Virus record (IMG/VR): IMGVR_UViG_3300005529_000023
Coordinates: 32,001-96,000 of that record
From: a virus
Direction: 5' to 3' (one strand)
DNA: 64,000 bases
Shown here: positions 48,425-64,000 of the stretch, piece by piece
Position numbering within the stretch: position 1 is the stretch's first letter
Layout: the number at the start of each line of letters is the position of its first letter
The notes under the pieces: generated by a model
Databases searched by the model: none
Seen by the model: only the letters and a program-made list of their open reading frames with translations
Told to the model about the DNA's origin: nothing
Made by a program: the position numbers and the translations under genes

Positions 48425-49056
48425 TCGGCCTCCAAAAGAGAAATCAAGTCTTGAGACTGACCGCCATCCTTCTTAGATTTCATGATCTCCAGATACTTTT
48501 TGTACACATCAACAGTCATAAGCGTATCTTCTTTGGCGTTGTGTGCCGCTCTCTTTGGAAGCTGCAGGTATTCAACGATAGAACCAAGAGTTCCGAGTTC
48601 CTTGGGAAACCATCCAGCGTCCTTGAAGAAGTCGCAGATTGTCTTGGTATCGATCTTTCCATAGTGAATCATGCTATCCCACTGATCACGAGGAATAAGG
48701 TGTTGATGAGTCCAGTCGATATCGAACTGCACGTTTTGGCCAAGGGGACGAATGTTGCTGTAGCGCCCATTCTTCTTCAGATAGCGCCTTACCATTCCGA
48801 TGATCTTCTCTCGTCCAGCGGAGTAGGGAATGGTCTCGGGATCTGCTAGGTGTGCAGCGATATTGATACCGTTCACTCTCAATGCACCGGCTTCAGCAAT
48901 AGGCATTCTGTCGCCATCTGGCTTCAACTTTAGATAAAGTTCTTCAATGAGCTTGAATTCTTCGTCGAGAATAGCTCCATACCAAGTAAGGAGATCGGCA
49001 GTTGCTGGATTGAGTCCACCAGTTTCAGAGTCAAAAGCGAGATAAAATTGAGCCAT
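48421..49056 (-). CDS. DEDDh exonuclease, DnaQ/epsilon-like
   Basis: AFDSETGG, GQNVQFD, HNAKEDT; two genes from dnaE. Confidence 0.85.
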   Translation of the reverse strand: MAQFYLAFDSETGGLNPATADLLTWYGAILDEEFKLIEELYLKLKPDGDRMPIAEAGALRVNGINIAAHLADPETIPYSAGREKIIGMVRRYLKKNGRYSNIRPLGQNVQFDIDWTHQHLIPRDQWDSMIHYGKIDTKTICDFFKDAGWFPKELGTLGSIVEYLQLPKRAAHNAKEDTLMTVDVYKKYLEIMKSKKDGGQSQDLISLLEAE

Positions 49057-49340
49057 TATGGTGCGTTCCTTAAATCGTAAAAGGGTTTTGCGCGTTCCTC
49101 TACCAGAATTTCAGTACAAATATCACCGCATTCATCGCAGATAGATACGCAAGGTCCAACAATGAGTTGCCGTACCTCTTTATTGTTCTTGCCGCAAAAA
49201 GAGCAAATGAACATAAAAGTAGGTTGATGTATTTTCCCGATTTCTTCGTTGAGAAGTTTTTCAAACTCTTCTTTTGGTAACTTTTTAAGTTCTTCGAGAA
49301 CTTCTAGGGCGGCTTTTTGTACAGCGGGCGAATTGCTCAT
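49056..49340 (-). CDS. Stand-alone ClpX C4-type zinc-binding domain protein
   Basis: CSFCGK....[22 protein letters not shown] matches the ClpX N-domain; no AAA+ module. Confidence 0.85.
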
Positions 49341-49981
49341 CGAGACTTTTCCTCTCGGACTTCAAGAGCGCTGCCCCGAGATCCGTGAATTCCTCTATCG
49401 TAGTTTTCTACAATATTAGTCTCAAGATCGACAATTTTCAAGCAATTTTTGTACCAAACGCAAATAACGCCTGATTTCTTAGCTCCGATAAGAGTCTTGC
49501 CTTCTAAAATCGCTTCTGCTTTATCTCTCTTACTGCTCGCGCCAGTCCTGGCCTCATTGGCTAGTTTGTCGCAGCGTTCATTGTGCTCATCGCCTGTGTG
49601 ACCGCGAACATGTCTGAACTTCACACCTAGACGAGCTACCAGGAACTTGAGCTGATGATACTTTTCGATCTTATCTTGTTGCTTAAACCTGTAGCGACCA
49701 GATGCCCAACCAAGGACAAGTTCGCTATCGGAAACAAGAAAGGTTTCTGCCTTAGCTACTTGTTCAAGAGTACAGACTCGCGGAGCAGTTTCTCCAAGCC
49801 ACTTGAGGACAGAGGCAAGTCCTTGGATAGCAGCTTCCATCTCGGCGTCATTATTGGAGGCACCTTCCATGTGACCACAACACTCAGCTATCTTGATGTT
49901 GTCTACTACCATGACATATGCCCAACCGCCTGGCTTGTCCGCAGTTGTAGCGCTACCGTCTGTGTAGACTTCAATCTTCAC
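49337..49981 (-). CDS. rnhA: Ribonuclease HI
   Basis: [33 protein letters not shown]. Confidence 0.9.
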
Positions 49982-50289
49982 AAGGAACCCTTTCTAATGA
50001 TCTCTTTGTAATGCCTAAGATTCGCAAGATATAGGCTGTTATCGCCATATTCTTCGGCGTCCCTTTCAAGAGCCATAATGAGAAGGTCTGTGTTCCCCTG
50101 ACATTTGAGAGCATAAAAAGCGAGTCTCACAGCGGGATTCTGCCAATCACCGATGAATTTGGTAGTGTAATTGTCTTTTTGATTACCCACCATGCAAAGA
50201 AAGGGCATATCCCTTTCGTTACACTTCTTAGCTAGATCCGCGAGTACAGGAGCAACATGCTCGTCATAGAATTGCTCATTCGGGTTCAT
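49978..50289 (-). CDS. Hypothetical protein (103 aa)
   Basis: Operon packing. Confidence 0.55.
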   Translation of the reverse strand: MNPNEQFYDEHVAPVLADLAKKCNERDMPFLCMVGNQKDNYTTKFIGDWQNPAVRLAFYALKCQGNTDLLIMALERDAEEYGDNSLYLANLRHYKEIIRKGSL

Positions 50290-50497
50290 GAAGACGAACT
50301 TTCTCTTTAGGTTGTAAAATTGATTTTCTTCCTAGGACAAGTTCTAGTCCTCCAATGAGGTAAGAAACTTCTTCATTTGTGAGATATAAAACATCCCAAT
50401 CGTGCTCATATTCAATGAGAAAATCGACACCGCTTCCATCTTCCCTTTTGGTAAGAGTGATAGCTTTGCCATCGCAGTGGATAGTGATTTTATTCAT
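50276..50497 (-). CDS. Hypothetical protein (73 aa)
   Basis: Operon packing. Confidence 0.55.
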   Translation of the reverse strand: MNKITIHCDGKAITLTKREDGSGVDFLIEYEHDWDVLYLTNEEVSYLIGGLELVLGRKSILQPKEKVRLHEPE

Positions 50498-50711
50498 TTT
50501 CTATCATGTCCTTTCTAAGCAACTTGATAGCGTCTTCGTAAATGGCATGAACCTCTTCTTCAGGGATCATCAGCAATCGCGCTATCACGCTATCTTCTAC
50601 GCCTTCAGGATTTTTTGCAACAAATTTCGATAAGGAATTAGAACATTTTGGACAACGGATGTAGTCCTCTTCCTCACGAACTCGCTTTTGCAGTTCGTCT
50701 TTGTCAGTCAT
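50490..50711 (-). CDS. Stand-alone sigma70 region-4.2-like HTH protein with a CxxC
   Basis: GVEDSVIARLLMIPEEEVHAIYEDAIKLLRK fits the region-4.2 pattern; GGAGG RBS before the ATG at 50711. Confidence 0.6.
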   Translation of the reverse strand: MTDKDELQKRVREEEDYIRCPKCSNSLSKFVAKNPEGVEDSVIARLLMIPEEEVHAIYEDAIKLLRKDMIENE

Positions 50712-51084
50712 CTTTCCTCCCGAAATTCGCATGAAGCACATTGTCGTCTCCCTTTTTGAGCTTCTCGATCTCTTCCTTGATCTTAGCTACAGATGCCTCT
50801 ACTTCAGCCTTCGCTTTATGATAGTGCGCTCTATCGTTCTGTAGAGCGGTCGCCCTTAGTCTGGTTTTCTTCAGATCTTCTTTGGCCTTCTTGTACTCCG
50901 AAGCAATGGGAATAGTGCTGCTATTTTTCAAGCACTTTAGATTTTCTTCTAGAGTGTCTTCTAAGTTGGAAAGAGTATCTAACTCTTTATCCAGGCCAAC
51001 AATAGATGAATGGACCGTATGTAGCCTGATCTCCGCGTCCTTGACGGCACGGTCCAACTTCGCCAGATCTTCTAGCCTTCCCAC
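50704..51084 (-). CDS. Coiled-coil hypothetical protein
   Basis: Heptad-rich sequence. Confidence 0.6.
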   Translation of the reverse strand: MGRLEDLAKLDRAVKDAEIRLHTVHSSIVGLDKELDTLSNLEDTLEENLKCLKNSSTIPIASEYKKAKEDLKKTRLRATALQNDRAHYHKAKAEVEASVAKIKEEIEKLKKGDDNVLHANFGRKDD

Positions 51085-51096
51085 TGATGCTCCAAG

Positions 51097-52728
51097 TTAT
51101 TTTAAACGCCATTTGCCATTGAAGGAGTTGATCATTTGTCTACATCCATTAGGGTAAGTAAGAATTGAACTATGCACCCAATCAGATGGACCTTCGTTGT
51201 AACTCAGTTTCAGGTAGCTAGACGTGCCTGCCTGCCATGCACCACGAAGGATTTCTGGAGAATGAGCATGTCCTGTATTTGACTTTCTATAGGACTTTTC
51301 CATTCCCCTAATGTTCCCACGACTACCCTTTGGCCCCTTATGGCCGTGCGCCCCATGCTGGATACCAGCGATGAAGTAGTCCTCGTCCATGGAAAGCCAA
51401 CGAATCTTGCTCTTGTTCTTCAGGCCGTACATTGTTTCCGCAGCAAACTGAAGTGGGTTGTGCCCATCTTTCATCGCCTTGGCTAAGTCTACGCCGATGG
51501 AGTAGTTGTTAGCGTCCTTAGTCCACCTACCGTGATCTAGCCAACGATCAAGAAAGAGATCGTGATTAGACTTCACAACATCGACTTCTTCCACGTTAGG
51601 GAAGTTGGAAAGCATGTCTAAGTCTTTAGTGAACTGTTTGAGTTCACTTTCCAGATTAAGCAAACCCTTCTGAGCAAGAATAGCTCTACGAATCTGTCTA
51701 TCTTCCTCGTGATGGTTGATGCTCAGGCCATTGAAACCATCGTGAATGAAGAGTCTTTTCGGTTTGACAAGATTACAGACTTCCTTCCATGCCTTTACGG
51801 CCGTAGGATCAGTCTCACCTGAGTGCCAGTCGCCCATTGTGAGGCTTTCAGCGTACATCTTCGTTACGGTATCGCCGAGATAGTAGTCGCCAAGGTCAAC
51901 GAATCCACCTTTGTCATCGGCTTGGATCTGCCTGAAGTGGTAGATATCATCATTTTCGATCTCTACAATGATAGCGCCGACAACATGGTCAAAGTTTGCT
52001 ATGTAAGCAGTTCTCTTACACATATAAGGACTGCAAATTACGTCATCATTGATGTCAAAGTACCTAGGAATAGTAGCTGCACCAGTAGTCATTTCTGCGT
52101 GAGGATTTTTGACGTTACTGACGGGCATGAACTTCAATCTTTGCTTCGGAGAAGCGTAGATGAAAGACCCATTTCCCTGACCAATACGATCCAGGCCGGT
52201 AGTGGGGTCAATTTGTTTGGCACTTAGCTCGATTGAGCACAAAAACAGATTTGAATTCAAGGCGACATCGGCAAAAACAATGGAATCAACCCCAAACTTA
52301 GGGTCCAGGTTCCAACTTCCAGCTGAGGCAGGATCTGCGCAAGGTAGAACTAGTAACTTGGCCTTCTTTTTCTCGCAGAAAGTTTGAATACTATCCAAAA
52401 ACATAGGGTGCGCGGGGCATCCAACTACGCCGGAAGTAATGACAAATCTTTTATGTTTCTTGATGCTCTGTTTGAGAGCTTCGAGGTTTTTCTCAGTGAA
52501 AATGTTGGAGTCGATGACATGGCTGAAAGCCTCGGGGTCATTGTCCGCTGCCCACTCCCGGGCCTTTTCTCTGAGTATGGTTAGATTCGAGAAATAGTGA
52601 CGAAGCTGGTCTCGACTCCAGCCTTTTCTAGATAAATCGGCTCTTCCAGGATACATGCCCGTCACTTTGACGAAGGCGATGTAGTCCTGGATAAGCTTAA
52701 TATGGTTTTCTGTTAGTTCCATAATCAT
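51097..52728 (-). CDS. Calcineurin-like metallophosphoesterase with N-terminal extensions
   Basis: GDWH, HDG, SNHD, HGH, GHAH motifs. Confidence 0.75.
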   Translation of the reverse strand: MIMELTENHIKLIQDYIAFVKVTGMYPGRADLSRKGWSRDQLRHYFSNLTILREKAREWAADNDPEAFSHVIDSNIFTEKNLEALKQSIKKHKRFVITSGVVGCPAHPMFLDSIQTFCEKKKAKLLVLPCADPASAGSWNLDPKFGVDSIVFADVALNSNLFLCSIELSAKQIDPTTGLDRIGQGNGSFIYASPKQRLKFMPVSNVKNPHAEMTTGAATIPRYFDINDDVICSPYMCKRTAYIANFDHVVGAIIVEIENDDIYHFRQIQADDKGGFVDLGDYYLGDTVTKMYAESLTMGDWHSGETDPTAVKAWKEVCNLVKPKRLFIHDGFNGLSINHHEEDRQIRRAILAQKGLLNLESELKQFTKDLDMLSNFPNVEEVDVVKSNHDLFLDRWLDHGRWTKDANNYSIGVDLAKAMKDGHNPLQFAAETMYGLKNKSKIRWLSMDEDYFIAGIQHGAHGHKGPKGSRGNIRGMEKSYRKSNTGHAHSPEILRGAWQAGTSSYLKLSYNEGPSDWVHSSILTYPNGCRQMINSFNGKWRLK

Positions 52729-52746
52729 CCTTTGGTTATTGGATGA

Positions 52747-53346
52747 TTACTGCTGTGCAGCTGGTTGATCCGCCTGTGGAGCCTCTTGCGCGGGAGCCGG
52801 TGCGGCCTCAGCTGGGGCAGCTTCTGCGGCTGGCTGAGGAGTTTCTGCCTTCGTGATGTCGTACACTTCGGCAACCTGTAGACGATACTGCCCTTCCTGA
52901 ACTTGCGTCGTCTCGCCAACCTTGAGTCCGAGGATCTTCTCGCAAACCAAAGGATTGGTTGCCTTGAGCTGAGAGTACACGAACTGATAGCGAGGGTTGA
53001 CGATTGTTCCGTCGTCAGCGATCTCGCGAAGAACTACGAAGGAGTTGTCCGTGATCTGTTCAGCAGCGGACATGAAACCTTGGGCTACCCAATTCTTTAC
53101 CCTGTTCGACATCTCTTCGACGTTATTTTCAATCATGATCTTGCGAATCACATCGTCGTTGATTGGCTGTTCAGAGGAAGCAGCTTTTACGATCGAATTG
53201 ACCTTATTGTCGAGAACCTTCAGGATATCCTTGATGGTCATGACATCGCGAACTAGGTTATCCATCGTTTGAAACAGCGAGATAACTCCCTGTTCTAGAT
53301 CCCTGATCTTTTCAGACGCGCTACGATTATCGGTTTTATTTGACAT
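52747..53346 (-). CDS. Hypothetical protein: coiled coil + GreA/FKBP-like C-terminal segment
   Basis: NPLVCEKILGLKVGETTQV resembles the GreA C-domain motif SP....LLG..VGD. Confidence 0.4.
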   Translation of the reverse strand: MSNKTDNRSASEKIRDLEQGVISLFQTMDNLVRDVMTIKDILKVLDNKVNSIVKAASSEQPINDDVIRKIMIENNVEEMSNRVKNWVAQGFMSAAEQITDNSFVVLREIADDGTIVNPRYQFVYSQLKATNPLVCEKILGLKVGETTQVQEGQYRLQVAEVYDITKAETPQPAAEAAPAEAAPAPAQEAPQADQPAAQQ

Positions 53347-53360
53347 GCAATTCTCCTTGA

Positions 53361-53678
53361 TTAGTTTTCGACTTCTTCGCTACCGCGAAGGGCCTGAATT
53401 AGAGTTCTTGTTCTACCGATAGCCGCAGCTACGGAGGTACAACTTCTGTTTAGTGAGGAATCTAGTCCGCTCTTTGGTTCCAGCTTTTCGTTGGAATCCT
53501 GGTGACCATAGCCAAGAATGATGGAATCGAGCGTGTCAAGTTCATTATGTAGATCACTTAGAAAATCTTCGATTTCCTCGGCAGTTTTCATAATCGGCCT
53601 AGCCTTTGGAATTGCCGTTAAATTTTCACAGCTATTGGACTTCGGACTTACCTTATCTCTCATTTTGTTTTCCTTCAT
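53361..53678 (-). CDS. Hypothetical protein (start may be 53663)
   Basis: AAGGA RBS precedes the second ATG. Confidence 0.5.
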   Translation of the reverse strand: MKENKMRDKVSPKSNSCENLTAIPKARPIMKTAEEIEDFLSDLHNELDTLDSIILGYGHQDSNEKLEPKSGLDSSLNRSCTSVAAAIGRTRTLIQALRGSEEVEN

Positions 53679-53682
53679 ACCT

Positions 53683-53689
53683 TATATCA
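53683..53689 (-). promoter_or_regulatory. TGATATA motif
   Basis: Its TGA is also the upstream stop codon, so this copy is weaker evidence. Confidence 0.3.
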
Positions 53690-54718
53690 TCCTGGGTTTT
53701 TTGCTGGCATTGTGCTTACCTTCGCGAGAAGCGCTGCCATGCCTGGCGCCCCCTGAATCTGCGTAGCTCTCTGAATCGCCAATGCCGCTTCCTGTTCTGG
53801 CGTTGCAGGAGGAAGTGCGCTGGTCGAAGTTACTCTCTTGGTAGTGGAGCGAATTCTTTCTTGTGTTTCCTTGAGTCTCTTAGCTTGTTCTTCAGCGGAA
53901 AGCGCGTTGATTGGCTTTTCCAGAGGGACGTAACCGAGTTCTTTTTTCAGCTCATCAACTGAGACTCCCTCTTCTGCGGCAACTTGTTCGATGGTGAGAT
54001 CAAGCTGAGTTCTCTTCATGGGAGTAGCGGCCTTAGTTGGAAGCTTAGCAGCAGATGTCTTGGAGTGAAGCTGAGGCTTAGAAGCTGACTTGGGCGCCGT
54101 AGTTCCGCCAATAGGGTTGAGGGTCGTTCTCTTTGGAGCCCTAAGCACGCTAGCTACTTGATTTGCTTCGGCAGTTTCAGTCGCTCCATTAGTAGCCTTG
54201 GAGGCTAGTTTCTTTAAAATATCGACTTCTAGGTCGTTGAATGGACTGGCTACAACGGCGTGCTTTGGAGCTTCTTGTCTCATTCCGAGCATGACTTCCA
54301 TTCTCTCGCGAGCAAAACGCTTGATCTCACGCTCCACATTTTTGATGGCCCGTGCATCAGCTTCCATTCCTTCAAAGAGGCTATGGTTCATGATCATCTT
54401 GTAAAGGTTACCTTGCTCCAGACGAAGACTGGCGTCATTCAGCACCGCAGAAAAATCTTCTTCCTCATCATCGCCATCTGGGAAAAGATCTAGTTCTGGA
54501 TCACCTTCAAAAACAGCAACTTCTGGCTCAGCTGGAGCCGTAAGAGGAGTGAATCCTCGCGACTTTGGCTCTGGCCTATTAGCCGCAGGAAGTGGTGCAG
54601 TGGCCAAGGGCGGAATCAACTGCTGGGCTAGTTCCTGAACGGACTTGCTTTGCTGGACCGAAATAGCGTCTTCTGGCTTGTCCTGAAATTCTTCTTCATT
54701 GTCCCATAGATTGCTCAT
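53687..54718 (-). CDS. Hypothetical protein (343 aa, partly low complexity)
   Basis: AAGGA RBS; strong coding pattern. Confidence 0.6.
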   Translation of the reverse strand: MSNLWDNEEEFQDKPEDAISVQQSKSVQELAQQLIPPLATAPLPAANRPEPKSRGFTPLTAPAEPEVAVFEGDPELDLFPDGDDEEEDFSAVLNDASLRLEQGNLYKMIMNHSLFEGMEADARAIKNVEREIKRFARERMEVMLGMRQEAPKHAVVASPFNDLEVDILKKLASKATNGATETAEANQVASVLRAPKRTTLNPIGGTTAPKSASKPQLHSKTSAAKLPTKAATPMKRTQLDLTIEQVAAEEGVSVDELKKELGYVPLEKPINALSAEEQAKRLKETQERIRSTTKRVTSTSALPPATPEQEAALAIQRATQIQGAPGMAALLAKVSTMPAKNPG

Positions 54719-55328
54719 TTTTTATCCTTCGAAGATGATAGCAGTATCCAAGCATGAGGGAATCTGCGGTATCTTCATCTTTCTTTCTCAGAGGCACGCT
54801 CAGAAACTGTCCAAACACTTCGTTTGCCCTTCGAATGTTGACGTGTTTTCTGCCGATGCGCCCGATGCGCTTGCCTTCCTCGTTATAAGCCACTTTTCCG
54901 CCGTTCTTTTCCTTATATTTCTTAACGACCTTATTATGCTTACTTTCTTCTTTGGTCATTTTGCATCCGGTCTCACGACGCCATTGTTCGGTCATGAGGT
55001 ACACGGTCTTAATACGAGTCTCTTTCACATATTGTGCCACAAGAAAGTGGATGAATTCAAGGATTTTCTGCGTATGAATCGCTTTACTTCCCGCAGAAGT
55101 CTCTTCAATCACCAAAGTATCTGGAGCATAGTGGTCAATTAATTTCACTATTTCCCTATAGCAGCTATGTGCCCAATCTACGAAATTGATGGGGTAAATA
55201 CCATCTGGCTGGTGGATCTGCGGAATCTGCCCATACATCTCCAGGTCGATACCATCCTTAGTACTGACCATTGAGGCCCAGCCGGTCTTGGTGGAGATAT
55301 CGAGTGCGAGAATGCGTTCATCGATCAT
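54696..55328 (-). CDS. RuvC-like Holliday junction resolvase
   Basis: ILALDIST.TGW, LVIEE, DTADS acidic catalytic motifs. Confidence 0.7.
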   Translation of the reverse strand: MIDERILALDISTKTGWASMVSTKDGIDLEMYGQIPQIHQPDGIYPINFVDWAHSCYREIVKLIDHYAPDTLVIEETSAGSKAIHTQKILEFIHFLVAQYVKETRIKTVYLMTEQWRRETGCKMTKEESKHNKVVKKYKEKNGGKVAYNEEGKRIGRIGRKHVNIRRANEVFGQFLSVPLRKKDEDTADSLMLGYCYHLRRIKNEQSMGQ

Positions 55329-55576
55329 AGGATCTGCTTCGATAGCCCCTCTATTTCCTTTTGGAGTTTGCCGATTTCTTTCTCTATGAACTCCATTTTC
55401 ATGCGAACCCTAGCGTTGTGGTGCTGCTTTTTGCGTTCGTTCCTGCGCCTTTTGAGTTCTTCAGCAATTTCTGCCGAAGTGTAGTCTTTCAGCTTTTTTA
55501 CTGGCGTACATGCGTAACAAGCCAAGTAAGCAGTGTCGGGACTTCCGCAGTTATCGCAGCGACCTACGTGTCTCAT
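55325..55576 (-). CDS. Zinc-finger/coiled-coil small protein
   Basis: CDNC...CYAC. Confidence 0.55.
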   Translation of the reverse strand: MRHVGRCDNCGSPDTAYLACYACTPVKKLKDYTSAEIAEELKRRRNERKKQHHNARVRMKMEFIEKEIGKLQKEIEGLSKQIL

Positions 55577-55797
55577 TTGTCAACATCCCACTCTTCACAG
55601 AAGTAGTGATTTAGCCCATAGGCCATCTCATTCTTCAGAAAACAGTAGGTGTTGGTAATCCTACTATTGTCCTTATAGTCGTGCTTGAACATTTGCATGC
55701 CCTGTTCCATCACGATCACATCGTAATAGTATTTTCTAGGCTGACTAGCACAGGAAAACAGTCCAAACATTAGAAATGGGATAAGGTACTTGATCAC
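55573..55797 (-). CDS. Small lipoprotein
   Basis: MIKYLIPFLMFGLFS-C lipobox. Confidence 0.6.
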   Translation of the reverse strand: MIKYLIPFLMFGLFSCASQPRKYYYDVIVMEQGMQMFKHDYKDNSRITNTYCFLKNEMAYGLNHYFCEEWDVDK

Positions 55798-56084
55798 GCT
55801 CCACCTTTTTCTTTAATTAAAGAAACAAGGTACTTGATTCTTTTCTTGTTCTCTTTGCGAGGTTCGGTATAGACCGAGGCCAGTTCCTTCACCTCAGCCT
55901 TGGCAGCCGAAAGCTGTTCATCATTCTTTTGGTTTTCATCGTGTTCAGACTGAGCCTTTGCGATGTCACCAAGACGGCCACGAAGTTGATCGACAGAAAG
56001 TCCGACTACCTCGCCAACGAAAGCCGAATCTTCCTTTTCCATCTTCTCTTCAAACGTAAGTTTCTTTTTAGGTGCTTTAGCCAT
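55794..56084 (-). CDS. Hypothetical helical protein (96 aa)
   Basis: GGGAG RBS. Confidence 0.6.
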   Translation of the reverse strand: MAKAPKKKLTFEEKMEKEDSAFVGEVVGLSVDQLRGRLGDIAKAQSEHDENQKNDEQLSAAKAEVKELASVYTEPRKENKKRIKYLVSLIKEKGGA

Positions 56085-56087
56085 GAT

Positions 56088-56423
56088 TTACTCCCTGTAG
56101 TCTATTTTCACTTGTCTTTTGAGCAAGTGCATTTTGTTCAAGTACGAAATAACAGCTTCTATCATAGCTACATGAGGCGTTTCGCTGGAATCGAGCGGTC
56201 TCTTTGAGACCTTCATCGGAAGCTTTGCCTTACTGTAGTTACTCTTGGCTGTACTCATGATATCGAACAAATCTTGTGAGTTAACGACGTGCTCTAGGCT
56301 GCTGATCTCAAAGTGCTTGTGGAAGATCATCTTTAGCCAGACAAGTCTTTCGTCCCGGCGCAGGTTAGCTTCTTTTTCCAGGTATTCCCTAAGCTCGCTA
56401 TCTAGCCTTTGCGGGTCACTCAT
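56088..56423 (-). CDS. Hypothetical protein (111 aa)
   Basis: AGGAG RBS. Confidence 0.6.
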   Translation of the reverse strand: MSDPQRLDSELREYLEKEANLRRDERLVWLKMIFHKHFEISSLEHVVNSQDLFDIMSTAKSNYSKAKLPMKVSKRPLDSSETPHVAMIEAVISYLNKMHLLKRQVKIDYRE

Positions 56424-56431
56424 GCACGCTC

Positions 56432-58492
56432 CTATGCTGCCTGTACAATTCTACTTGTGGCGCCTTCTCTCACAACCACGAGTCTACTTCCGACCATCTG
56501 CTTTACCTCTGGATTGTGGTCTACAATGATCAGCTTTTTGCTGACATTGGAGTTCTTAAGAACTTCGAGTGCCATTTCAATACACACAGTATCCAGCCCA
56601 GTGAAGGGTTCGTCAAGAATAAAAATGCCTATTCCCTTATTTGACTTATTTTCGATAAGGTCGATGACAGCTAGATCCACGGCTAAATCAGTCGCAGAAC
56701 GTTCGCCGCCACACAAACTCTTGATAGGGATGTTCTCGTCTCCATCCAAGTGAATTACGGCATTGACCTCTTCCTTGACTTTGCCTTCTTTGGTCTCCTT
56801 CAATCCTTCAAGCTGGATTGTCGCATTCGCCATGTTGGGAACTTTCCGAATCATGGTCGTTGCACTGTTGCCAATGTCTTCCAGAGCCTCATCAAAAGAA
56901 CGGGACAGGTGACTCTTTAGGGCCTTCTTTAGCTCTTCTGCCTTCTCCAATTCCTTGACTATTGTAGTCAGGACATCGGAAAATCCATCGACCTTGGCAG
57001 CGTGTCCTATTTCCTGCTCTTGGAGGCGTTTTAACATCGACTCATAGTTCTTGAGAGCGGTATCGTAGGCTTTTAGCTTTGATACGGCAGCATCCAAGGC
57101 CCTGCGATCCACTTCTGCCTGTCCGCGAGCTTGATCGGACAGAGAAGCGTGCTTATCCCTCAAAGCTTTCTGTCGAAATGCAAAGTCATCCTGCCAGGTC
57201 TTGTTCAGATGGTGGATGGCATTGGCTTTGTCGGTCTCATTCTGCTTTTCCTGGGCGATCTTCCTGATGAGTTCAACCTCATACTTCTGCATGTGATCAT
57301 ATCCTACGGGAACAAATGGCTTAGCTTGCACTGTAAGTAAGCCCAGTTCGCTAGTCTCGCTTGCAAGCTGTGCAGCCGCTTCATCTCCTGCCTGAATGAT
57401 CTCTTTGAATTTGGCAATTTTCTCAAGAAGGACAGTTTCTTCTGCCTTGGCCCCTTCAGTTGCCCAACTCTGAAGGCAGGTATGGCAAATGTTCTCTCTG
57501 AGTTTCTTGATTTTTAGCGCCGAAGCAGCCGCCTCAGGCTTGACATAGTCACGTTGCCTGACTTTTTCAGCCAAGGAGGACATTTTGAGCTTGAGGGCGG
57601 TGATTTGAGCGTTGATCTTAGACTGCCTATCCTTCTCTTCGAGCATGAGTTGACCCATTTGCGCTCGTAATTGGGTCAGATTCTGCTCCAATTGTGCTCT
57701 AGTTGAGGTATCCACCACAGTTGATTGTGGCTGAGGACGTTGAAGATCGAAAGCTTCTGCTTCAATTCTTTGTTGAGCCAAAATCATCGTGAGGGCGGCA
57801 CTAGAGGTGTCAGCTTTATTCTTGAGTTGGAGTACTACTTCTTGGTGCATATCTCTGACGGGAGCCAATCCCAACCCTAGAATGGCGTCCTGGGTCGTTT
57901 TTACAGCAACACGAGCGCTGTTCAATGAAGTAGTAGCCAGTTCTTTCTTTTCCGTTAGCTCTTTGATCTTGGCATCTAGCACTTCTAGGTCTTTTTTGTG
58001 CTTCGACAGGCCAAGACAATCTGTTAGGAAGTCATTCATTTCCTTTGGTGTGAGAGAAAGAAAGAAACCGCCTTCTTTTTGTCTTTTGTGAAGGATTTTT
58101 CTGAAAAGATCGCGTGGCATTGCTAAAATCTCATCTAGTTTCTCTTCCGAGATCTTACTACTTCCCCTGGTCTCTACACCGTCGAGTTCGATGGCGAGTT
58201 TTCCCTTGTTGCGCGAGATTTTAAGAGCCTTGCCATTGTAATCGAATAGGCCAGAGACAGAAATGGGGTCTTTTGAGACGCGAGACTGTAAAACTGTATT
58301 GGGGATGTCGTTCAGGCCAAGAAGATAGTCTAGGGCATGAAAAACAGTACTTTTACCGGCGCCACTTGAGCCACCAGTGTTCCTGTTCTCCCCGTCTACC
58401 TGAACTAGGTCGCCAAGACTCTCAAAATTGATCACCTGTTCATCAACAAAGCGACCAATTCCAGAGAAACGCAACTCTTTCGGATCAATCAT
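56432..58492 (-). CDS. sbcC: SbcC/Rad50/gp46-like SMC ATPase
   Basis: GSSGAGKST, coiled coil with CHTC zinc hook, LCGGE signature, ILDEPFTGLD. Confidence 0.85.
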   Translation of the reverse strand: MIDPKELRFSGIGRFVDEQVINFESLGDLVQVDGENRNTGGSSGAGKSTVFHALDYLLGLNDIPNTVLQSRVSKDPISVSGLFDYNGKALKISRNKGKLAIELDGVETRGSSKISEEKLDEILAMPRDLFRKILHKRQKEGGFFLSLTPKEMNDFLTDCLGLSKHKKDLEVLDAKIKELTEKKELATTSLNSARVAVKTTQDAILGLGLAPVRDMHQEVVLQLKNKADTSSAALTMILAQQRIEAEAFDLQRPQPQSTVVDTSTRAQLEQNLTQLRAQMGQLMLEEKDRQSKINAQITALKLKMSSLAEKVRQRDYVKPEAAASALKIKKLRENICHTCLQSWATEGAKAEETVLLEKIAKFKEIIQAGDEAAAQLASETSELGLLTVQAKPFVPVGYDHMQKYEVELIRKIAQEKQNETDKANAIHHLNKTWQDDFAFRQKALRDKHASLSDQARGQAEVDRRALDAAVSKLKAYDTALKNYESMLKRLQEQEIGHAAKVDGFSDVLTTIVKELEKAEELKKALKSHLSRSFDEALEDIGNSATTMIRKVPNMANATIQLEGLKETKEGKVKEEVNAVIHLDGDENIPIKSLCGGERSATDLAVDLAVIDLIENKSNKGIGIFILDEPFTGLDTVCIEMALEVLKNSNVSKKLIIVDHNPEVKQMVGSRLVVVREGATSRIVQAA

Positions 58493-58830
58493 TTCCCAGG
58501 CTCCAGATTCTTCTCATGCCAGCCGCCCTTACCGTCAGATTCTTCGTACTTGACGTTGCCACGAATGATCTCTTTCTGCAGAGCCATCCAAGATTGAAAC
58601 TCTTTCGTCTCAGTCATTCTTTTGAACGCCTTCTTTTTGTTAGCGAGCTGATCGCGTTCTTCCCTCGACTCACCTACGGCACCGCTAGCTTCGTGGACGA
58701 TGCGAACTCCAGAGTTCACCTTGTTCTGATTCTGACCACCTTTGCCACCCGAGCGGAAGGTGTCTATTCTGAGGTCTTTAGCTGTGATGCTAAAGACAAG
58801 TTTACGTTTCTTCACTTGTTGCCGTCCCAA
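58489..58830 (-). CDS. Class-I release-factor-domain peptidyl-tRNA hydrolase (ArfB/PrfH-like)
   Basis: FRSGGKGGQNQNKVNSGVRIVH..ERDQLANK..A. Confidence 0.85.
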   Translation of the reverse strand: MGRQQVKKRKLVFSITAKDLRIDTFRSGGKGGQNQNKVNSGVRIVHEASGAVGESREERDQLANKKKAFKRMTETKEFQSWMALQKEIIRGNVKYEESDGKGGWHEKNLEPGK

Positions 58831-59129
58831 ATGATGCCAGCATAGAAGCTGCCACGTTTCAGATACTTTTCTTCTCTGAGTCTTTCGAGTTCGTGGTCTT
58901 TGATGTTGAAGTTCATCTTGAGCGCTCGAATGACTTCTAGGACATCAGCCAACTCTTCGTATAGCTCAAGTGTGTTCCTTGCATTCTTGGCTTCTGTAGC
59001 CTCTTCAACAAGCTTATCGAGCATGAATCTAAGGAGTTCGTTACCCTTGGCGATCCTATATTTCATAGGCGTCCTAAGAGGATCTTCGGCGCAAATCTTG
59101 GGCATATGGTCTCTGACCAATTTTTCCAT
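58812..59129 (-). CDS. MazG/HisE-superfamily NTP pyrophosphohydrolase
   Basis: KLVRD, KLVEE..E, EELADVLEV, K...RGSF. Confidence 0.8.
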   Translation of the reverse strand: MEKLVRDHMPKICAEDPLRTPMKYRIAKGNELLRFMLDKLVEEATEAKNARNTLELYEELADVLEVIRALKMNFNIKDHELERLREEKYLKRGSFYAGIIWDGNK

Positions 59130-59377
59130 TAGCTATCCTTAAAATCTTTTGTGGATCTATTTTTGATATCTTCGATAACGTCCAAGTTCACTTCTACCGC
59201 TCGTGCCTGTACTCCGTTATCGACCTTAATTATAGACTGAGACGAAGGAGCCTTCAACATTCTTTTCGCGTTTTTTCCGCATTTTTCGCATGAAAAAAAG
59301 GCAGGCGCTTGCGACGCCTGCCTGAAAAACTTACTCACCGAATTCTTGCATTCGCAAAGGTAATAGATGAGTGGCAC
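59129..59377 (-). CDS. FmdB-like zinc-ribbon protein
   Basis: MP...Y.CEC...CEKCG..A.R...AP. Confidence 0.65.
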   Translation of the reverse strand: MPLIYYLCECKNSVSKFFRQASQAPAFFSCEKCGKNAKRMLKAPSSQSIIKVDNGVQARAVEVNLDVIEDIKNRSTKDFKDS

Positions 59378-59383
59378 AGTAAA

Positions 59384-60262
59384 TTACCAGTACATAGGAA
59401 CAACTTGCTTCTGCTTGTTGTCGAACTGTTCCTTGAACTTTTTGATCATATCTACTTTTTGTTCGCTGGTGTAAATTACCTTACCCTCTGGAGCAACAAT
59501 TTTGATGTTCATTGGACTCGTATTAAGAGGGCAATTGTCGAGATCGTAATGAATCTCAACTCCAAAGAAATCGATTGAATGGGTCGTAGCGCCAGCAAGC
59601 GTTTCATCGCACTTCACAAGAACTACGCGATCAGCATAGCCTTCAGTGACAGCCTGGGTGCCAGTAAGCCACATCTCATCTGCGTACTCTTTCTGATAAC
59701 TCTGTAGTGTTTGCTTACCCTTAGTTCTCTTAACCGTCTGCTGATCAAGTTCGGTGAGACGAGACATCCAAAGCTTGTATCTGCTCTCGATCTGACTTGG
59801 CGATGGTCCACCGAATGCACCAACAAACTCACCAGCCGCTCTATGGCTCATCAAGACACCGTTCTTAAGAACGAGACGATCGCCAAGGTTCTGCGCAATT
59901 TGGAATCCCATGCTTGCAGCAAATAGAGTAACAGTGTGAATAGAACGACCAAGGCCGTTAAGGGCTTCAATCATCTCAAGGCCAGACTGAATGCTTCCGC
60001 CTGGCGTGTTAAGGAAAAGATAAAGAGGCTTCTTCTCGCCCTTGATCTTGGACTTCAGGGTATTGAGTCCCCTATCCAGTTCCTTGGCGTTGGCAATGAT
60101 CTTACCAACACTTGCGCCGTCAACTTCTTCATTCAGAACTAAGGTGTTATCCTTAGAAAGTACAACGGTTTCAGTCTTCTCTTCGCTGTCGGTCGATTTA
60201 GATGGCGTCGCCGCAGCGATCAAAAACGCCAATAGTACTACTAGTACCCTATTTAGTTTCAT
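59384..60262 (-). CDS. Signal-peptide-bearing ClpP/S14-like protease
   Basis: NTPGGS..SG, AASMG, MSH, MWLTG..A...GYAD; hydrophobic N-terminus MKLNRVLVVLLAFLIAAA. Confidence 0.75.
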   Translation of the reverse strand: MKLNRVLVVLLAFLIAAATPSKSTDSEEKTETVVLSKDNTLVLNEEVDGASVGKIIANAKELDRGLNTLKSKIKGEKKPLYLFLNTPGGSIQSGLEMIEALNGLGRSIHTVTLFAASMGFQIAQNLGDRLVLKNGVLMSHRAAGEFVGAFGGPSPSQIESRYKLWMSRLTELDQQTVKRTKGKQTLQSYQKEYADEMWLTGTQAVTEGYADRVVLVKCDETLAGATTHSIDFFGVEIHYDLDNCPLNTSPMNIKIVAPEGKVIYTSEQKVDMIKKFKEQFDNKQKQVVPMYW

Positions 60263-60947
60263 TGTTAGAATCTCCTTCGTCTTGGTCTATATCACTACTC
60301 TTCTTCGCTTTTGCCTGGCTCTCCGCTTCGCGCCTCATATCGGCAAACTGTTTCAACTTTGAATTGATAGCGGAATCTTTTGGGGTAATAGTGAGTTTGT
60401 TTTCCCCAGTCTTTTCAATGGTTACGCCGTCGCCTACATTGAGGCCGACAGCAGGAGACTTAGAAGATTTGCCGGGATCTTTGCCAAGATCATTGACGTG
60501 TTCAATCGCCTTTATGATCTGAGCAAGTTCCTTCATATCCAGGTCCATGTGTTCTTCATCACCCGTAGCTAGATATTGAGTCAGCTTATTGCCAACCTTT
60601 TTCTGACTTGCCTGAAGCAACAACAGCATGAAGTTTTGATTCATTACCTTGGCTTCAGCGATTCTGCTTTTGATTGTATGCTGGAGTTCGGTCAAGTACT
60701 CTTTCTTAGTCAAGAACCAATCGAACTTATGTGCCAGATACAGGACCAAATTCTTCTTAATACGCAAAGCATTTGAGATCTGCGAGTAGGTGCTACCAGA
60801 AAGGTACATGTCCATCATTCTGTACAATGACTTGTCGTCTACGGACTCAAGGCCCGGCATCCCTTCAGTAACGTATTCTTGTACGCGCTCTAACTCTAGA
60901 GCCGTCATATCTGTTGGTTTTTCTGGAACTGGTAGATTATCTGACAT
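60249..60947 (-). CDS. HTH DNA-binding protein, possibly terminase small subunit-like
   Basis: MYLSGSTYSQISNALRI..NLV...A.K.DW HTH followed by helices. Confidence 0.4.
   Translation of the reverse strand: MSDNLPVPEKPTDMTALELERVQEYVTEGMPGLESVDDKSLYRMMDMYLSGSTYSQISNALRIKKNLVLYLAHKFDWFLTKKEYLTELQHTIKSRIAEAKVMNQNFMLLLLQASQKKVGNKLTQYLATGDEEHMDLDMKELAQIIKAIEHVNDLGKDPGKSSKSPAVGLNVGDGVTIEKTGENKLTITPKDSAINSKLKQFADMRREAESQAKAKKSSDIDQDEGDSNNETK
60288..60294 (-). promoter_or_regulatory. TGATATA motif
   Basis: 25 nt upstream of the ATG at 60262, with an AAGGAG RBS between; inside the 3' end of the upstream CDS. Confidence 0.35.
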
Positions 60948-61287
60948 CTTTGCTCTCGTATTTTTTTTCGTCGTTAATGTAGACTTCTACTTTTACATCT
61001 CGCCAAAAAAGATTTCTAACCGCCGCTTCTAGAGCCTGAAATCTCTTCTCCATGTTTTCTCCTTCAACAGGGCCTGTGAAGCGATAGCAAACACGCGAAC
61101 CGTGTTGAACTTCTTTCTTAGCTTCATTAACGGCATGACCAAAATCGTAATCGATGGAAGCGCTCTTGATGTTGTCAAAGAACACAAAAGGAAACTTTCT
61201 AAGATTTTCTGCGTGAAAATCGCTGATCCTATTTGCCAAGACTGCCAGCTGCGCTCTTTCTTTTAGTTTCTGTTTTAGATCAGACAA
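60937..61287 (-). CDS. Hypothetical protein (116 aa)
   Basis: GGAG RBS. Confidence 0.55.
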   Translation of the reverse strand: MSDLKQKLKERAQLAVLANRISDFHAENLRKFPFVFFDNIKSASIDYDFGHAVNEAKKEVQHGSRVCYRFTGPVEGENMEKRFQALEAAVRNLFWRDVKVEVYINDEKKYESKDVR

Positions 61288-62263
61288 TTCCCAACTCCTT
61301 TGCGTATCGAACCAACTCGTCCTTGTCCATTTTGGTCACGTACAAGTTGCGCAGAAAATCCTCAAACCCCTTAGCGGCCTGCCTCTTCTCTGTTTTCTTG
61401 GTGTCGGTGATCTTGGTCTTGATTGCACACTTTCCCTTCAGAGCTAACTTCTGCTTAGATACCCAATCCGAAGATCCAACGAGTTCTATGGCTACCCTTG
61501 CCCCCTCAGGGAAATTTGGAATTTCTTCTCCTTCTCCAACGCTAAATTGGAGAATAGGACTACAGACCCCTTCGGTGGAGATGTACTCCTCAGAAATGAT
61601 TTCCCCTGTGGAGTCGCTATGAACGTAAATTGTAAGGCCCTTAGGTTGATTAGCATCGGCTGTGGTATCCCAACGGGGAGTACCTGGATATTTGACTCGT
61701 CCGAACTCCTGCCTGGAATGGATGTGACCGGAAATGACGTGGATAAATTGCGGGGATAAAAGAGAGACATCAATTCCATCGGGGGTGTACATTCCGCTTT
61801 CATACTTACTTCCTTTGAAAGTTTGATGACAGACAAGAACCTTGGCCAATCCAGATAATGAATTGACAACATCTACAAATCTCGCTGAATCATGGATGTA
61901 TGGTACATAGAGAAATTGGCCATTAATAGTGGGTATATTCACAATCTTCAAGTTTTTCTTGCTATCCTCAATCCATTGGAAGACATCGAGAGCAGAGGCA
62001 GAGGAGCTATAATCGCCCGTTTGATCATGGTTTCCCACGAGAACTACTACCTCACAGACATTTGCTAGCTCAATCAGCGCTTCTTCCCAAAACCTAAGAA
62101 CTTCTAGCCTAATGATCGAATGGGTATGAAACAAGTCCCCTAGAATCTCGATCCTATCCACTTTGTGCTCAACAGCAAGCCAAACGATGAACTTCAGCAG
62201 TTTCTCGCTTTCCTTGATGTTGTTCACTTTGACGTGAGGATCGCCGACGCGTAGGATTTTCAT
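61280..62263 (-). CDS. sbcD: SbcD/Mre11/gp47-like nuclease
   Basis: GDPH, GDLFH, GNHD, CHQ, SGHIH; partner SbcC is 3 kb downstream. Confidence 0.8.
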   Translation of the reverse strand: MKILRVGDPHVKVNNIKESEKLLKFIVWLAVEHKVDRIEILGDLFHTHSIIRLEVLRFWEEALIELANVCEVVVLVGNHDQTGDYSSSASALDVFQWIEDSKKNLKIVNIPTINGQFLYVPYIHDSARFVDVVNSLSGLAKVLVCHQTFKGSKYESGMYTPDGIDVSLLSPQFIHVISGHIHSRQEFGRVKYPGTPRWDTTADANQPKGLTIYVHSDSTGEIISEEYISTEGVCSPILQFSVGEGEEIPNFPEGARVAIELVGSSDWVSKQKLALKGKCAIKTKITDTKKTEKRQAAKGFEDFLRNLYVTKMDKDELVRYAKELGIV

Positions 62264-62265
62264 CT

Positions 62266-62403
62266 TTATCCTAGTTCATGGTCCAGCGTAAGTAGCGCAA
62301 TGTACATGAAGAAACCAGCTAGAACGCTATGCTGCCAAAATCCAAAGAGAGTCGCTCCGGTTGCAATTCTGATCCATACTGCTAATGCTTTAGTGAGATC
62401 CAT
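62266..62403 (-). CDS. Small membrane protein (45 aa, MDLTKALAVWIRIATG...)
   Basis: Hand-translated; hydrophobic; fills the operon gap. Confidence 0.5.
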   Translation of the reverse strand: MDLTKALAVWIRIATGATLFGFWQHSVLAGFFMYIALLTLDHELG

Positions 62404-62404
62404 C

Positions 62405-62563
62405 TTATTTTTCCTTTTTGAGAGTTCCACAGAATGCACAATTGTCGTGCGGTTTTCCGTGAAGCAAAGTTACAAACCAACGATTGTACTTTGGCATGAT
62501 CCACTTGGTGAATTCCCAAATCGCGATGCTGCCAACAAACTGAACTATACCTGTGTCAGTCAT
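62405..62563 (-). CDS. Small membrane-associated protein with H..C..C (52 aa, MTDTGIVQFVGSIAIW...)
   Basis: Hand-translated; ATGA overlap with the upstream stop. Confidence 0.5.
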   Translation of the reverse strand: MTDTGIVQFVGSIAIWEFTKWIMPKYNRWFVTLLHGKPHDNCAFCGTLKKEK

Positions 62564-62898
62564 GCGGCCTCATCTGGCGGCGGAGAAAGGAACTCTACGA
62601 ATTGCATATCTACGATCAAGAAAGGACAAGGAAGAGTCTCACACTCAAGAGCTTTTTGTGCCCATGCTTGTGTATGAAGGCTTTCTTCTCTGATGTACGC
62701 AGTAGAACCCTTGCGTACGTAGAGTCCGAATCTAGTTCCGTCGTCTAGTCTAGTATCGACTAGAACCTTAAGTCCCTTAAGAGCTAGCTTTTGAGAAACG
62801 AATGCAAAGCCATTCTTCTCGGTAGCACGAAGCCCCTCTTTTTTGTACGCCTCAACGATAAGACGATTGTTCATCGAAAGTGGAAAGTCTAAAGTCAT
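62560..62898 (-). CDS. GroES/T4 gp31-like co-chaperonin (putative)
   Basis: MNNRLIVE....EKNG mobile-loop pattern, VRKGSTAYI, FLIVD..V. Confidence 0.5.
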   Translation of the reverse strand: MTLDFPLSMNNRLIVEAYKKEGLRATEKNGFAFVSQKLALKGLKVLVDTRLDDGTRFGLYVRKGSTAYIREESLHTQAWAQKALECETLPCPFLIVDMQFVEFLSPPPDEAA

Positions 62899-63926
62899 AA
62901 TTTGATTCCTTTCAATTGTAGCACTTTTTTATGAAGTATTGGAAGCCTCTTTGCGAGAGAAAGCATTTGCTCTGTAGCTTCTTTCTCCATGTATGCTTCT
63001 TCTATATCTTGGGTAGTGTCAGGAGTGAAATGGTAAACACCATAACCCTCGTCGTTCACAGTAGCATCGGCAGATACCGTACTAGACGCATTCATTAATG
63101 CACTAAGTTGGCTAACAGTGACCTTCTCTTTTGGTATGCTTTTGCCTTCTTCTGCGTCCTTTTTGAAACTTTCGTTGATCGCCTTAGTCAGTTCCTTGAT
63201 GTCCTCAATTCCTTGGCGCGCACGAATCGTATGAGCCTTATAGAGAATTCTCTTATCAGAAGGATAGAAGTGCAACATCGTCTCACTGTAGCTGTCGATC
63301 ATATTGCCGACCATTCGACCGATGCAAACCGATCGGAAAACCGGAGAATATTCACCAGACCACTTATCTACGCCAGCCGCTAAGCCAAGACCGCAGATAC
63401 CGATAAAATCCATCAAGGTCAGATGACTCTTTGGAGTTTTGCGATAGAACAGTTTGGCCCGGTTGATAGCTAGGGGCATGTTGTTCTCGATCAGGATAGT
63501 GCGTGCTTTGTGGACTCGCTGAAATAGTTGTTCGGCGCGCTTTGGGAATGGGCCTAACCACGCATCGCGGATGAATTTGATGAACTGATAGTTGATATCG
63601 AAACGTTTCAGAGTTTCTACGTCGCGCACTTTGATTGCAGGTGTAATATGCTTACTGAAGGAAGTAGCGATCTCTCTGAAATAAGGACGCGCGCTCAAAA
63701 TGTTTTTGTTTTGAATACAAACCTTCTGGAGGAATTTTTTGTAGATCTCAGTCGATTGACGATACTTCAAAATAGTTTCTTTGAATTTACGTTCCGCATC
63801 CAAAAGTTCTTCGACCTGTTCCTTCTGAAGGGAACCGTCCCTGTTCTTTTCTAGAGCCTTGGTAACTTCACCAGCTAATCTGTAAAACGAGTCGTCAAAC
63901 GCTTCCTGGCGTTTTGTTTTTTGCAT
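62895..63926 (-). CDS. Sigma70-family RNA polymerase sigma factor truncated after region 4.1
   Basis: ARTILIENNMPLAINRAK..DFIGICGLGL..GVDKW..FRSVC..RM (region 2); VSADATV (3.2); ends LPILHKKVLQLKGIKL* with no 4.2 HTH. Confidence 0.8.
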   Translation of the reverse strand: MQKTKRQEAFDDSFYRLAGEVTKALEKNRDGSLQKEQVEELLDAERKFKETILKYRQSTEIYKKFLQKVCIQNKNILSARPYFREIATSFSKHITPAIKVRDVETLKRFDINYQFIKFIRDAWLGPFPKRAEQLFQRVHKARTILIENNMPLAINRAKLFYRKTPKSHLTLMDFIGICGLGLAAGVDKWSGEYSPVFRSVCIGRMVGNMIDSYSETMLHFYPSDKRILYKAHTIRARQGIEDIKELTKAINESFKKDAEEGKSIPKEKVTVSQLSALMNASSTVSADATVNDEGYGVYHFTPDTTQDIEEAYMEKEATEQMLSLAKRLPILHKKVLQLKGIKL

Positions 63927-63934
63927 AACCCTTA

Positions 63935-63941
63935 TATATCA
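63935..63941 (-). promoter_or_regulatory. TGATATA motif (within TATGATATATAAG)
   Basis: 8 nt before the SD-less ATG of the sigma gene. Confidence 0.45.
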
Positions 63942-64000
63942 TAGGGCTATATTCTAGGTATTCTTATGTACTTGATTTCGGAACCAGAGTCGCTATAATA

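Follow-up and report, generated by a model that had tools for sequence, protein, structure and literature searches.

A phage sigma factor ending after region 4.1 and a separate acidic region-4-like protein: a possible two-polypeptide sigma in relatives of Myxococcus phage Mx1

Region 4 ties bacterial sigma factors both to the flap of the RNA polymerase beta subunit (beta-flap) and to the -35 box, and phages are known to remove this region, as in T4 gp55 and SPO1 gp34, or to remodel it, as AsiA does. This study concerns a sigma70-family gene of 343 amino acids (aa) on the minus strand at 62895-63926 of a 64,000-nucleotide stretch of viral DNA (hereafter the window), which represents bases 32001-96000 of the 176,870-bp IMG/VR virus record IMGVR_UViG_3300005529_000023, rated complete by CheckV. 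The source is a large environmental phage and a relative of Myxococcus phage Mx1. As judged by profile alignment and a predicted model, its sigma protein possesses regions 1.2, 2, 3 and 4.1, and lacks region 1.1 as well as the helix-turn-helix (HTH) of region 4.2; elsewhere in the window lies the gene of a 73-aa acidic protein with a predicted region-4-like fold. In this report, we describe both genes, the promoter-like motifs of the genome, and a mechanism in which the two proteins may act together.

The sigma gene and its family-wide end point

The sigma locus contains the following features:

62895-63926, minus strand: gene for the sigma70-family protein, 343 aa (open reading frame (ORF), profile against PDB, AlphaFold2 (AF2) model, Foldseek, VIA)
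63282-63539, minus strand: region 2 of the sigma, about aa 130-215 (hidden Markov model (HMM) alignment to RpoD and SigA; TIGR02997 match at aa 130-190)
62898-63005, minus strand: C-terminal two-helix hairpin, aa 308-343, equivalent of sigma70 region 4.1 (profile alignment, AF2)
62560-62898, minus strand: gene of 112 aa, ATGA-coupled to the sigma stop and described as GroES-like in the initial annotation (ORF and sequence)

The gene carries a prior "sigma factor" label, both from JGI and in the Mx1 record, and the initial annotation of the window had called its product a clear sigma70-family protein with regions 2 and 3. This assignment holds, yet it is not obvious to single-sequence tools, and the homology is significant at the profile and fold level only. 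As a single sequence, the protein had no match in Pfam (Sigma70_r2 included), none in PHROGs and none by phmmer in the PDB, while NCBIfam returned sub-threshold sigma70 models, of which TIGR02997 was the best (aa 130-190, E 2.6e-5). A profile made from an alignment of 45 sigma-family sequences, with identities down to 30%, matched RpoD and SigA chains in the PDB with E values from 3e-9 to 1e-7; the alignment to RpoD (E 3e-9) is continuous over sigma70 residues ~370-566, and its last segment is REAKVLRMRFGID. The AF2 model calculated from the same alignment has a predicted local distance difference test (pLDDT) value of 87.5 and a sole disordered stretch, residues 285-304, which falls at the expected position of the region 3.2 linker. 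Foldseek ranked the primary sigmas of Thermus, E. coli and mycobacteria at the top, with a probability of 1.0 for Thermus SigA, and VIA-align placed model residues 11-343 onto sigma70 residues 95-566 with Z ~12, a total of 195 chains having Z of at least 8. According to both comparisons, the order sigma2-sigma3-linker-sigma4 is kept in the predicted model.

Within region 2, the HMM alignment to RpoD and SigA shows conserved regions 2.1 and 2.2 and a diverged region 2.3, in which the columns of sigma70 W433 and W434 are occupied by V and C or A in the phage sigma (FRSVCIGRM) and the FSTY segment is missing. The aromatic residues of region 2.3 that serve in promoter melting (sigma70 Y430, W433 and W434) are accordingly not those of the phage protein. 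At the other end of the molecule, the two helices of the 4.1-equivalent hairpin (residues 308-326 and 330-338) are modeled with pLDDT 88-92, and L328, K334 and G340 are invariant or nearly so in the 45-sequence alignment. The hairpin ends with a family-wide K.L.LKG motif plus three residues, and the C-terminus of the translated ORF reads LPILHKKVLQLKGIKL. The -35-reading HTH of region 4.2 is absent, as protein and alignment both stop at the equivalent of sigma70 residue 566. Direct reading of the DNA gives TGA as the stop, followed by CTT and then TAG, so that readthrough would terminate two codons on, and no HTH is encoded downstream of the stop. The earlier proposal that the protein ends after region 4.1 is thus borne out.

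The same end point is found across the family. A word-indexed search yielded more than 999 sigma relatives, the best 120 of which are all 341-364 aa long, many of them on contigs of 160-177 kb. HMMER, run exhaustively against representatives at 50% identity, gave 401 sigma clusters, with identity down to ~30% and Mx1 included; among the matches listed, nearly all are 335-365 aa long and the alignment reaches query residue 340-343. The K.L.LKG motif lies at most 21 residues from the C-terminus in 251 of 270 retrieved relatives, and exactly three residues before the end in 185 of them, and none of the 270 has an added C-terminal HTH. About a dozen long forms (589-824 aa; P0175, P0198, P0218 and ~9 others) are interrupted near residue 215 and have no C-terminal extension. 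Their insert, located in region 2.3/2.4, matches Intein_splicing and Hint below the Pfam gathering cut-off, and such inserts are, judging from these sequence matches, probably inteins in a phage sigma gene. Full-length relatives had been named as the finding that could refute a real truncation, and this search for them upholds the truncation; the best explanation is that region 4.2 was lost long ago and that its absence is now fixed in the Mx1-like phage clade.

Mx1 itself, which infects Myxococcus xanthus, is the only relative in culture. Its sigma orthologue (WNM70309.1, in OR576727) has 335 aa and 34% identity over 90% of the query, and is annotated as 'putative RNA polymerase sigma factor'; the sigma is not discussed in the genome announcement (PMC10720576). 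The gene order is the same as here, namely helicase, sigma, overlapping small gene and phosphoesterase.

The overlapping small gene begins within the sigma stop, its ATG and the TGA sharing the sequence ATGA. A gene coupled in this way follows the sigma in ~60 related loci (L007-L084) as well as in Mx1, and its product in the related loci has 95-160 aa and is beta-rich by sequence pattern. A related-locus search of IMG/VR with two divergent single queries found no loci. The overlap noted initially is therefore real, while the GroES (Cpn10) identity given to the product was not confirmed, Pfam being blank and a 30-sequence profile returning insignificant PDB matches only. Because the ATGA coupling is so tight, this product is another candidate for a partner of the sigma.

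A stand-alone region-4-like protein and its possible contact with the sigma

The second gene of interest lies some distance from the sigma gene:

50490-50711, minus strand: 73-aa acidic sigma region-4-like protein, candidate trans partner (family search, AF2)

Over 100 homologues, each 67-93 aa long, make up the family of this protein, which is marked by a strongly conserved pattern, DYIRCPK..NSL..F..KN.EG...IARLL...EE.V..IY..A...LR. A zinc ribbon was considered and discarded, since the cysteines vary in divergent members. The gene is present in exactly one copy in 24 of 24 related sigma-bearing IMG/VR records, whose sigma identity ranges from 78% to ~33%. In Mx1, the homologue is an 80-aa ORF without annotation in GenBank (OR576727, ~157455-157697, complement; L006:5983-6225), and it lies at the syntenic position, flanked by a metallophosphatase/coiled-coil pair on one side and by the Pol III alpha gene on the other. 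The corresponding pair in the window consists of a 543-aa protein at 51097-52728 (minus strand; PHROG 'DNA transfer protein' phrog_1745, E 5e-95, with a metallophosphatase core) and, after it, a 126-aa coiled-coil protein at 50704-51084 (minus strand); the same pair precedes the small HTH gene in Mx1.

Several sequence comparisons point in the direction of sigma region 4 at low scores. The Sigma70_r4 model PF04545 matched the recognition-helix half of the protein from this genome with 11.2 bits (E 0.056), below the cut-off of 24.1, and gave weak matches in 5 of 33 family members, the best at E 0.0035. When a diverse family profile was compared with the PDB, the top entries were a sigma factor C-terminal HTH (E 0.066), FliA and NarL; hhalign found no relation between the 73-aa protein and the sigma family. 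A whole-genome scan produced two other weak Sigma70_r4 or Sigma70_r4_2 places, both judged to be due to chance: one runs through a stop codon where a phosphoribosyltransferase-like gene ends, and the other lies in a coiled-coil 83-aa protein (55325-55576).

The fold comparisons point the same way more clearly. The AF2 model has a pLDDT of 88.9, and its nearest fold clusters in the ESM Atlas carry PF04545 in 94-95% of members, with template-modelling (TM) scores of 0.61-0.67; one of these neighbors, a viral 76-aa cluster with PF04545 in 94% of members, superposes with TM 0.67 and a root-mean-square deviation (rmsd) of 1.7 Å over 58 residues. The language-model features of the Atlas agree with these sigma4 neighbors, and the top entry in BFVD is a 115-aa phage 'RNA polymerase sigma-70 region 4' (E 0.036). 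In a wide VIA scan of PDB folds, sigma4 or LuxR HTH domains were the most frequent kind of match, with ~20 of the top 50 rows, and were aligned to residues 31-73 with rmsd values of 1.4-2.3 Å and every Z at or below 3.4, and Foldseek gave no PDB match at E of 0.001 or less. The model spans the entire Pfam r4 unit, with one helix that corresponds to the second of region 4.1, a finding that suggests a small region-4 domain, more than the missing region 4.2. The separate 4.2-like HTH gene of the initial annotation thus exists, and is conserved in all 24 records, as a whole r4 unit and not as region 4.2 alone. The protein has an isoelectric point of 4.8, and acidic residues mark its 'recognition' helix in the whole family (PEEEVHAIYED here); because both the protein and this helix are acidic, canonical -35 reading, or DNA reading of this kind at all, is unlikely.

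Complex prediction was carried out with sigma residues 298-343 and the 73-aa protein, both given as alignments, in three runs and with three controls. The interface score ipSAE was 0.58, 0.57 and 0.58, against 0.01 for the best control; the runs had at least 96% of contacts in common, and the partner pLDDT was at least 75. In the calibration, 58 of 80 solved complexes and 2 of 110 mismatched pairs reached the mark used for this score, and values of 0.60 or less within that set came from only 7 of the 80 solved complexes and from both mismatched pairs. The prediction lends weak support to a contact between the sigma hairpin and the 73-aa protein.

A third gene was considered on account of the initial annotation, which had described it as a second region-4-less sigma:

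37373-38281, minus strand: 302-aa core protein, formerly read as a second sigma (core gene; sigma reading unsupported)

The gene is present in 16 of 16 near-complete relatives, and a stretch of its product resembles region 2.1/2.2 by eye. The second-sigma reading is unsupported, as every sequence test of it failed. Pfam, NCBIfam and PHROGs gave no sigma signal, family profiles from two alignments of increasing diversity had no sigma match in the PDB, Pfam had none in 21 family members, and hhalign of this family against the sigma family gave E 0.17. By Atlas features, the protein has viral 'sigma factor' clusters of 185 aa as neighbors (122 shared features, PF04542 in 21% of members), and this proximity to sigma clusters of the size of gp55 is a lead only. 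The conserved N-terminal part of the family also occurs inside much longer frames of 552 and 568 aa in two divergent relatives (G020:C1:112861-113121 and G009:C1:82356-83048), which are possible fusions or have different start sites.

Other genes recognized in the window include an SbcC-like nuclease subunit at 56432-58492 (minus strand; phrog_77) and an SbcD-like one at 61280-62263 (minus strand; phrog_100), a Pol III alpha-type DNA polymerase at 44487-48035 and a DnaB-like helicase at 35684-36868.

Promoter-like motifs

Upstream words were counted in the 80 nt before genes that follow a gap, using a crude gene call of the whole genome. The two motif classes that had been proposed initially are both enriched upstream: ATCTTAA, AATCTTA and ATCTTTA, belonging to AATCTT[AT]A, by 15-22 fold, and TGTGATA, GTGATAT and TGATATA, belonging to TG(T)GATATA, by 11-14 fold. 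The first class has 20 genomic copies, 18 of them on the plus strand, and 15 copies are situated 12-58 nt before a start on the same strand. It precedes, among others, the structural genes of 2191, 895, 887, 798 and 1492 aa, and its three copies in the window are:

5539-5546, plus strand: AATCTTTA box; the 2191-aa structural gene starts 26 nt downstream
17545-17552, plus strand: AATCTTTA box; the 895-aa gene starts 42 nt downstream
23703-23710, plus strand: AATCTTTA box; the 887-aa gene starts 25 nt downstream

In two relatives, too, the AATCTT core ranks with the most enriched upstream words; one of them has a sigma of 48% identity (GC 36%) and the other a sigma of 33% identity (GC 48.5%). 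In the first 50 kb of Mx1 (GC 55%), 7 of 17 plus-strand AATCTT copies lie 12-35 nt before annotated starts, such as that of the portal gene, where ~0.5 would be expected by chance according to our own arithmetic. The box stands single, without a -35-like partner, and a single conserved, phage-specific box before late genes fits a phage sigma that is independent of the -35 element.

The second class includes a box directly upstream of the sigma gene:

63935-63941, minus strand: TGATATA box, 15 nt upstream of the sigma start codon (upstream motif search)

This class is absent upstream in the relatives G015 and G020, where CATGTTATAT or CTTGACA takes its place. Because it changes among relatives, as is expected of host-sigma promoters when hosts differ, the class is probably read by the host. 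Many of the TG(T)GATATA boxes, for example those at 43699-43705, 53683-53689 and 63935-63941 (all minus strand), begin 11-16 nt before a start codon, a spacing that, should the boxes serve as -10 elements, would leave the mRNAs nearly leaderless.

Canonical -35/-10 promoters, which the initial annotation had placed on accessory genes, fared less well: 34 sites were counted in 44001-64000 against 24.7 +/- 4.3 in shuffled sequence, a mild excess only, and the strict form TTGACA-N15-19-TANNNT had nine matches, just one of them upstream of a start. Within that part of the window, the sequence most like a sigma70 promoter is TTGAAG-17-TATAAT at 59229-59257 (minus strand), directly after a strong intrinsic-terminator-like hairpin at 59299-59323 (minus strand; 10 pairs, 7 GC, T-run).

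A possible two-polypeptide sigma, its rivals and known systems

We propose that the phage makes a working sigma without region 4.2, assisted by an acidic, region-4-like partner on the flap side, and we give this proposal as a whole slightly less than an even chance. The sigma would be made from a host-type promoter, namely the TGATATA box 15 nt before its ATG, and would bind the host core RNA polymerase via region 2 and the 4.1 hairpin. It would then initiate, independently of a -35 element, at the single AATCTT(W)A box found 12-58 nt before structural genes; core binding, the reader of the box and any contact between the two proteins are inferred. The 73-aa protein would most likely dock on the 4.1 hairpin, on the beta-flap (tip), or on both, so that a region-4-like module would anchor the sigma and exclude region 4 of the host sigma without reading any DNA. 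The net result would be a sigma of two polypeptides, the smaller of which would act in the manner of T4 gp33 and not as a -35 reader. The earlier idea of a region 4.2 supplied in trans survives in this form in part: a sigma without 4.2, a sigma4-like core gene and a weak complex score speak for it, and -35 reading by the 73-aa protein is the part that falls away. The broader claim, that a ~165-kb, globally distributed phage clade has a natural split sigma, with promoter recognition and flap anchoring shared by a sigma1.2-4.1 polypeptide and a free sigma4 protein, is one that we put forward tentatively and consider doubtful.

A number of points weigh against the proposal. The sigma is without melting aromatics of the W433/W434 type. 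The sequence evidence for the 73-aa protein as a sigma4 domain is consistent, though sub-threshold, and the complex score falls in a range where most predictions are wrong if there was no prior reason to expect the complex; a likeness to well-known intact sigma4 domains may also have contributed to the score. The 73-aa protein owns a 4.1-like helix, with which the simple complementation of a missing piece fits poorly. A distance of 12 kb separates the two genes, and among the matches listed there is no fused form. The co-occurrence of the two genes, which had been suggested as a check, was found in all 24 records and is weak, non-discriminating evidence, because all genes tested belong to the core of the clade and the 302-aa protein is equally universal. 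Finally, nothing ties the AATCTT box to the 343-aa sigma rather than to the 302-aa core protein.

The most serious alternative is that the truncated sigma works alone, independently of the -35 element and with its 4.1 hairpin holding the beta-flap tip, and that the 73-aa protein is an unrelated small regulator, either an ordinary HTH factor or a protein that, in the manner of AsiA or gp33, blocks region 4 of host sigma70 or the beta-flap (for host and early shut-off). The conserved truncation, the lack of fused forms among the matches listed and the single box as the conserved promoter-like element all agree with this account, as do several traits of the 73-aa protein, which is a complete r4-like unit with its own 4.1-like helix and has the acidity expected of a protein-binding decoy. 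Large separate clusters consist of stand-alone viral Sigma70_r4 proteins (76-130 aa), and the co-occurrence amounts to core-gene behavior in the clade and nothing beyond it. On the other hand, the complex prediction beat all three controls by 0.57, and the hydrophobic face of the 4.1 hairpin is conserved, which implies that something packs against it; this could be the beta-flap alone. We regard a sigma acting alone as possible, but on the unlikely side.

It is quite improbable that the 343-aa protein is a sigma derivative that does not initiate, for instance a decoy sequestering the host core RNA polymerase or an anti-sigma-like modulator. Such a role would agree with the loss of the conserved melting aromatics and of region 4.2 and with the failure of the Pfam sigma models to detect the protein. 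Regions 1.2-4.1 are nevertheless kept in order in a confident fold, a conserved phage-specific promoter-like box needs a reader, and T4 gp55 and SPO1 gp34 are working sigmas without region 4 (PMC7892883, PMC13401047).

The three-tier cascade of the initial annotation, in which the host sigma is followed by a phage sigma A and then a phage sigma B, with the 73-aa protein as an exchangeable 4.2 subunit restoring the -35 and flap contacts, appears very improbable, and nothing tested speaks for the cascade as such. The existence of two upstream motif classes, the Atlas features that set the 302-aa protein near viral 'sigma factor' clusters and the weak complex support for the first sigma could be cited in its favor. 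However, the 302-aa family has no sigma signal (hhalign E 0.17), the recognition helix of the 73-aa protein is acidic family-wide, the AATCTT box has no -35-like partner, and the TGATATA class is not conserved while the phage factors are, for which host-sigma promoters are the better fit. An artefact, be it an assembly error, a recent nonsense mutation or a frameshift that cut a full-length sigma, has a negligible probability and found no support: the first two are excluded because the end point recurs throughout the family, on hundreds of contigs of independent origin and in ~400 clusters (50% identity). ATGA coupling of the next gene is found in ~60 loci and Mx1, and beyond the stop there is a TAG two codons on and no encoded HTH.

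If the sigma and the 73-aa protein assemble, they would be a natural case of the modularity of sigma factors, which has so far been exploited mainly by engineering. A function would also be at hand for the large class of orphan viral Sigma70_r4 proteins, in that many of the stand-alone ones from metagenomes would act in trans as sigma modules of this kind. Phages of the clade are abundant in metagenomes, and Mx1, which grows on M. xanthus, shares the AATCTT box, so the question is directly testable. Mx1 is like the present phage in its orthologous sigma, its homologue of the small protein and its AATCTT boxes before structural genes, and differs in that the small-protein gene lacks annotation in its record. 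In the open literature, we found no description of a sigma with region 4.1 but without 4.2, nor of a stand-alone region-4 partner.

Among known systems, the late transcription system of T4 employs the gp55 sigma, the gp33 co-activator and the gp45 clamp (PMC7892883, PMC2988020). The present protein resembles gp55 in being a phage sigma without a -35 reader, with a single -10-like box before late genes. It differs from gp55, which has 185 aa and is essentially region 2 only, in that regions 1.2, 3 and 4.1 are also kept; here, a protein similar to a primary sigma retains everything up to the last helix before the DNA reader. Neither the 343-aa nor the 302-aa protein matched T4 gp55 by sequence or belonged to a PHROG family, gp55 is absent from their PDB profile matches and from the fold matches, and T4 gp33 is not among the listed sequence or fold matches of the 73-aa protein. 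The 73-aa protein is acidic (pI 4.8), as is expected of a small co-activator of the gp33 type that binds the beta-flap tip helix, and it differs from gp33 in its sigma4-like HTH fold. For a clamp of the gp45 or beta type, Pfam found no PF00712 or PF09116 match in the 176.9-kb genome, and a divergent or host clamp is still possible. In SPO1, the late sigma gp34 is without the entire host sigma-A domain to which SPO1 gp33 binds, and gp33 inhibits the host sigma-A holoenzyme by inserting between beta and sigma-A region 4 (PMC13401047). Compared by description, SPO1 gp33 is unlike the 73-aa protein in that it does not have a sigma4-like fold. The nearest neighbors of the 73-aa protein in fold and features are the stand-alone viral Sigma70_r4 (PF04545) proteins of 76-130 aa from metagenomic phages, whose clusters pass the Pfam model, whereas the 73-aa family is sub-threshold and acidic.

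A division of sigma between polypeptides has a cellular precedent in Bacillus subtilis, where the SigO and RsoA genes are adjacent. Sigma functions are split there between polypeptides of ~22 kDa and ~9 kDa, as summarized in a later article citing Davis et al. 2016, and a table in that article assigns sigma2 and sigma3 to the one and sigma4 to the other (PMC10141391). The SigO-RsoA system differs from the present one in being cellular and not viral, and, in a comparison made by description, the point of division and the DNA-reading role of the small subunit may differ as well. By analogy, the proposed pair may be likened to T4 gp55 and gp33 in function, and to SigO-RsoA in form.

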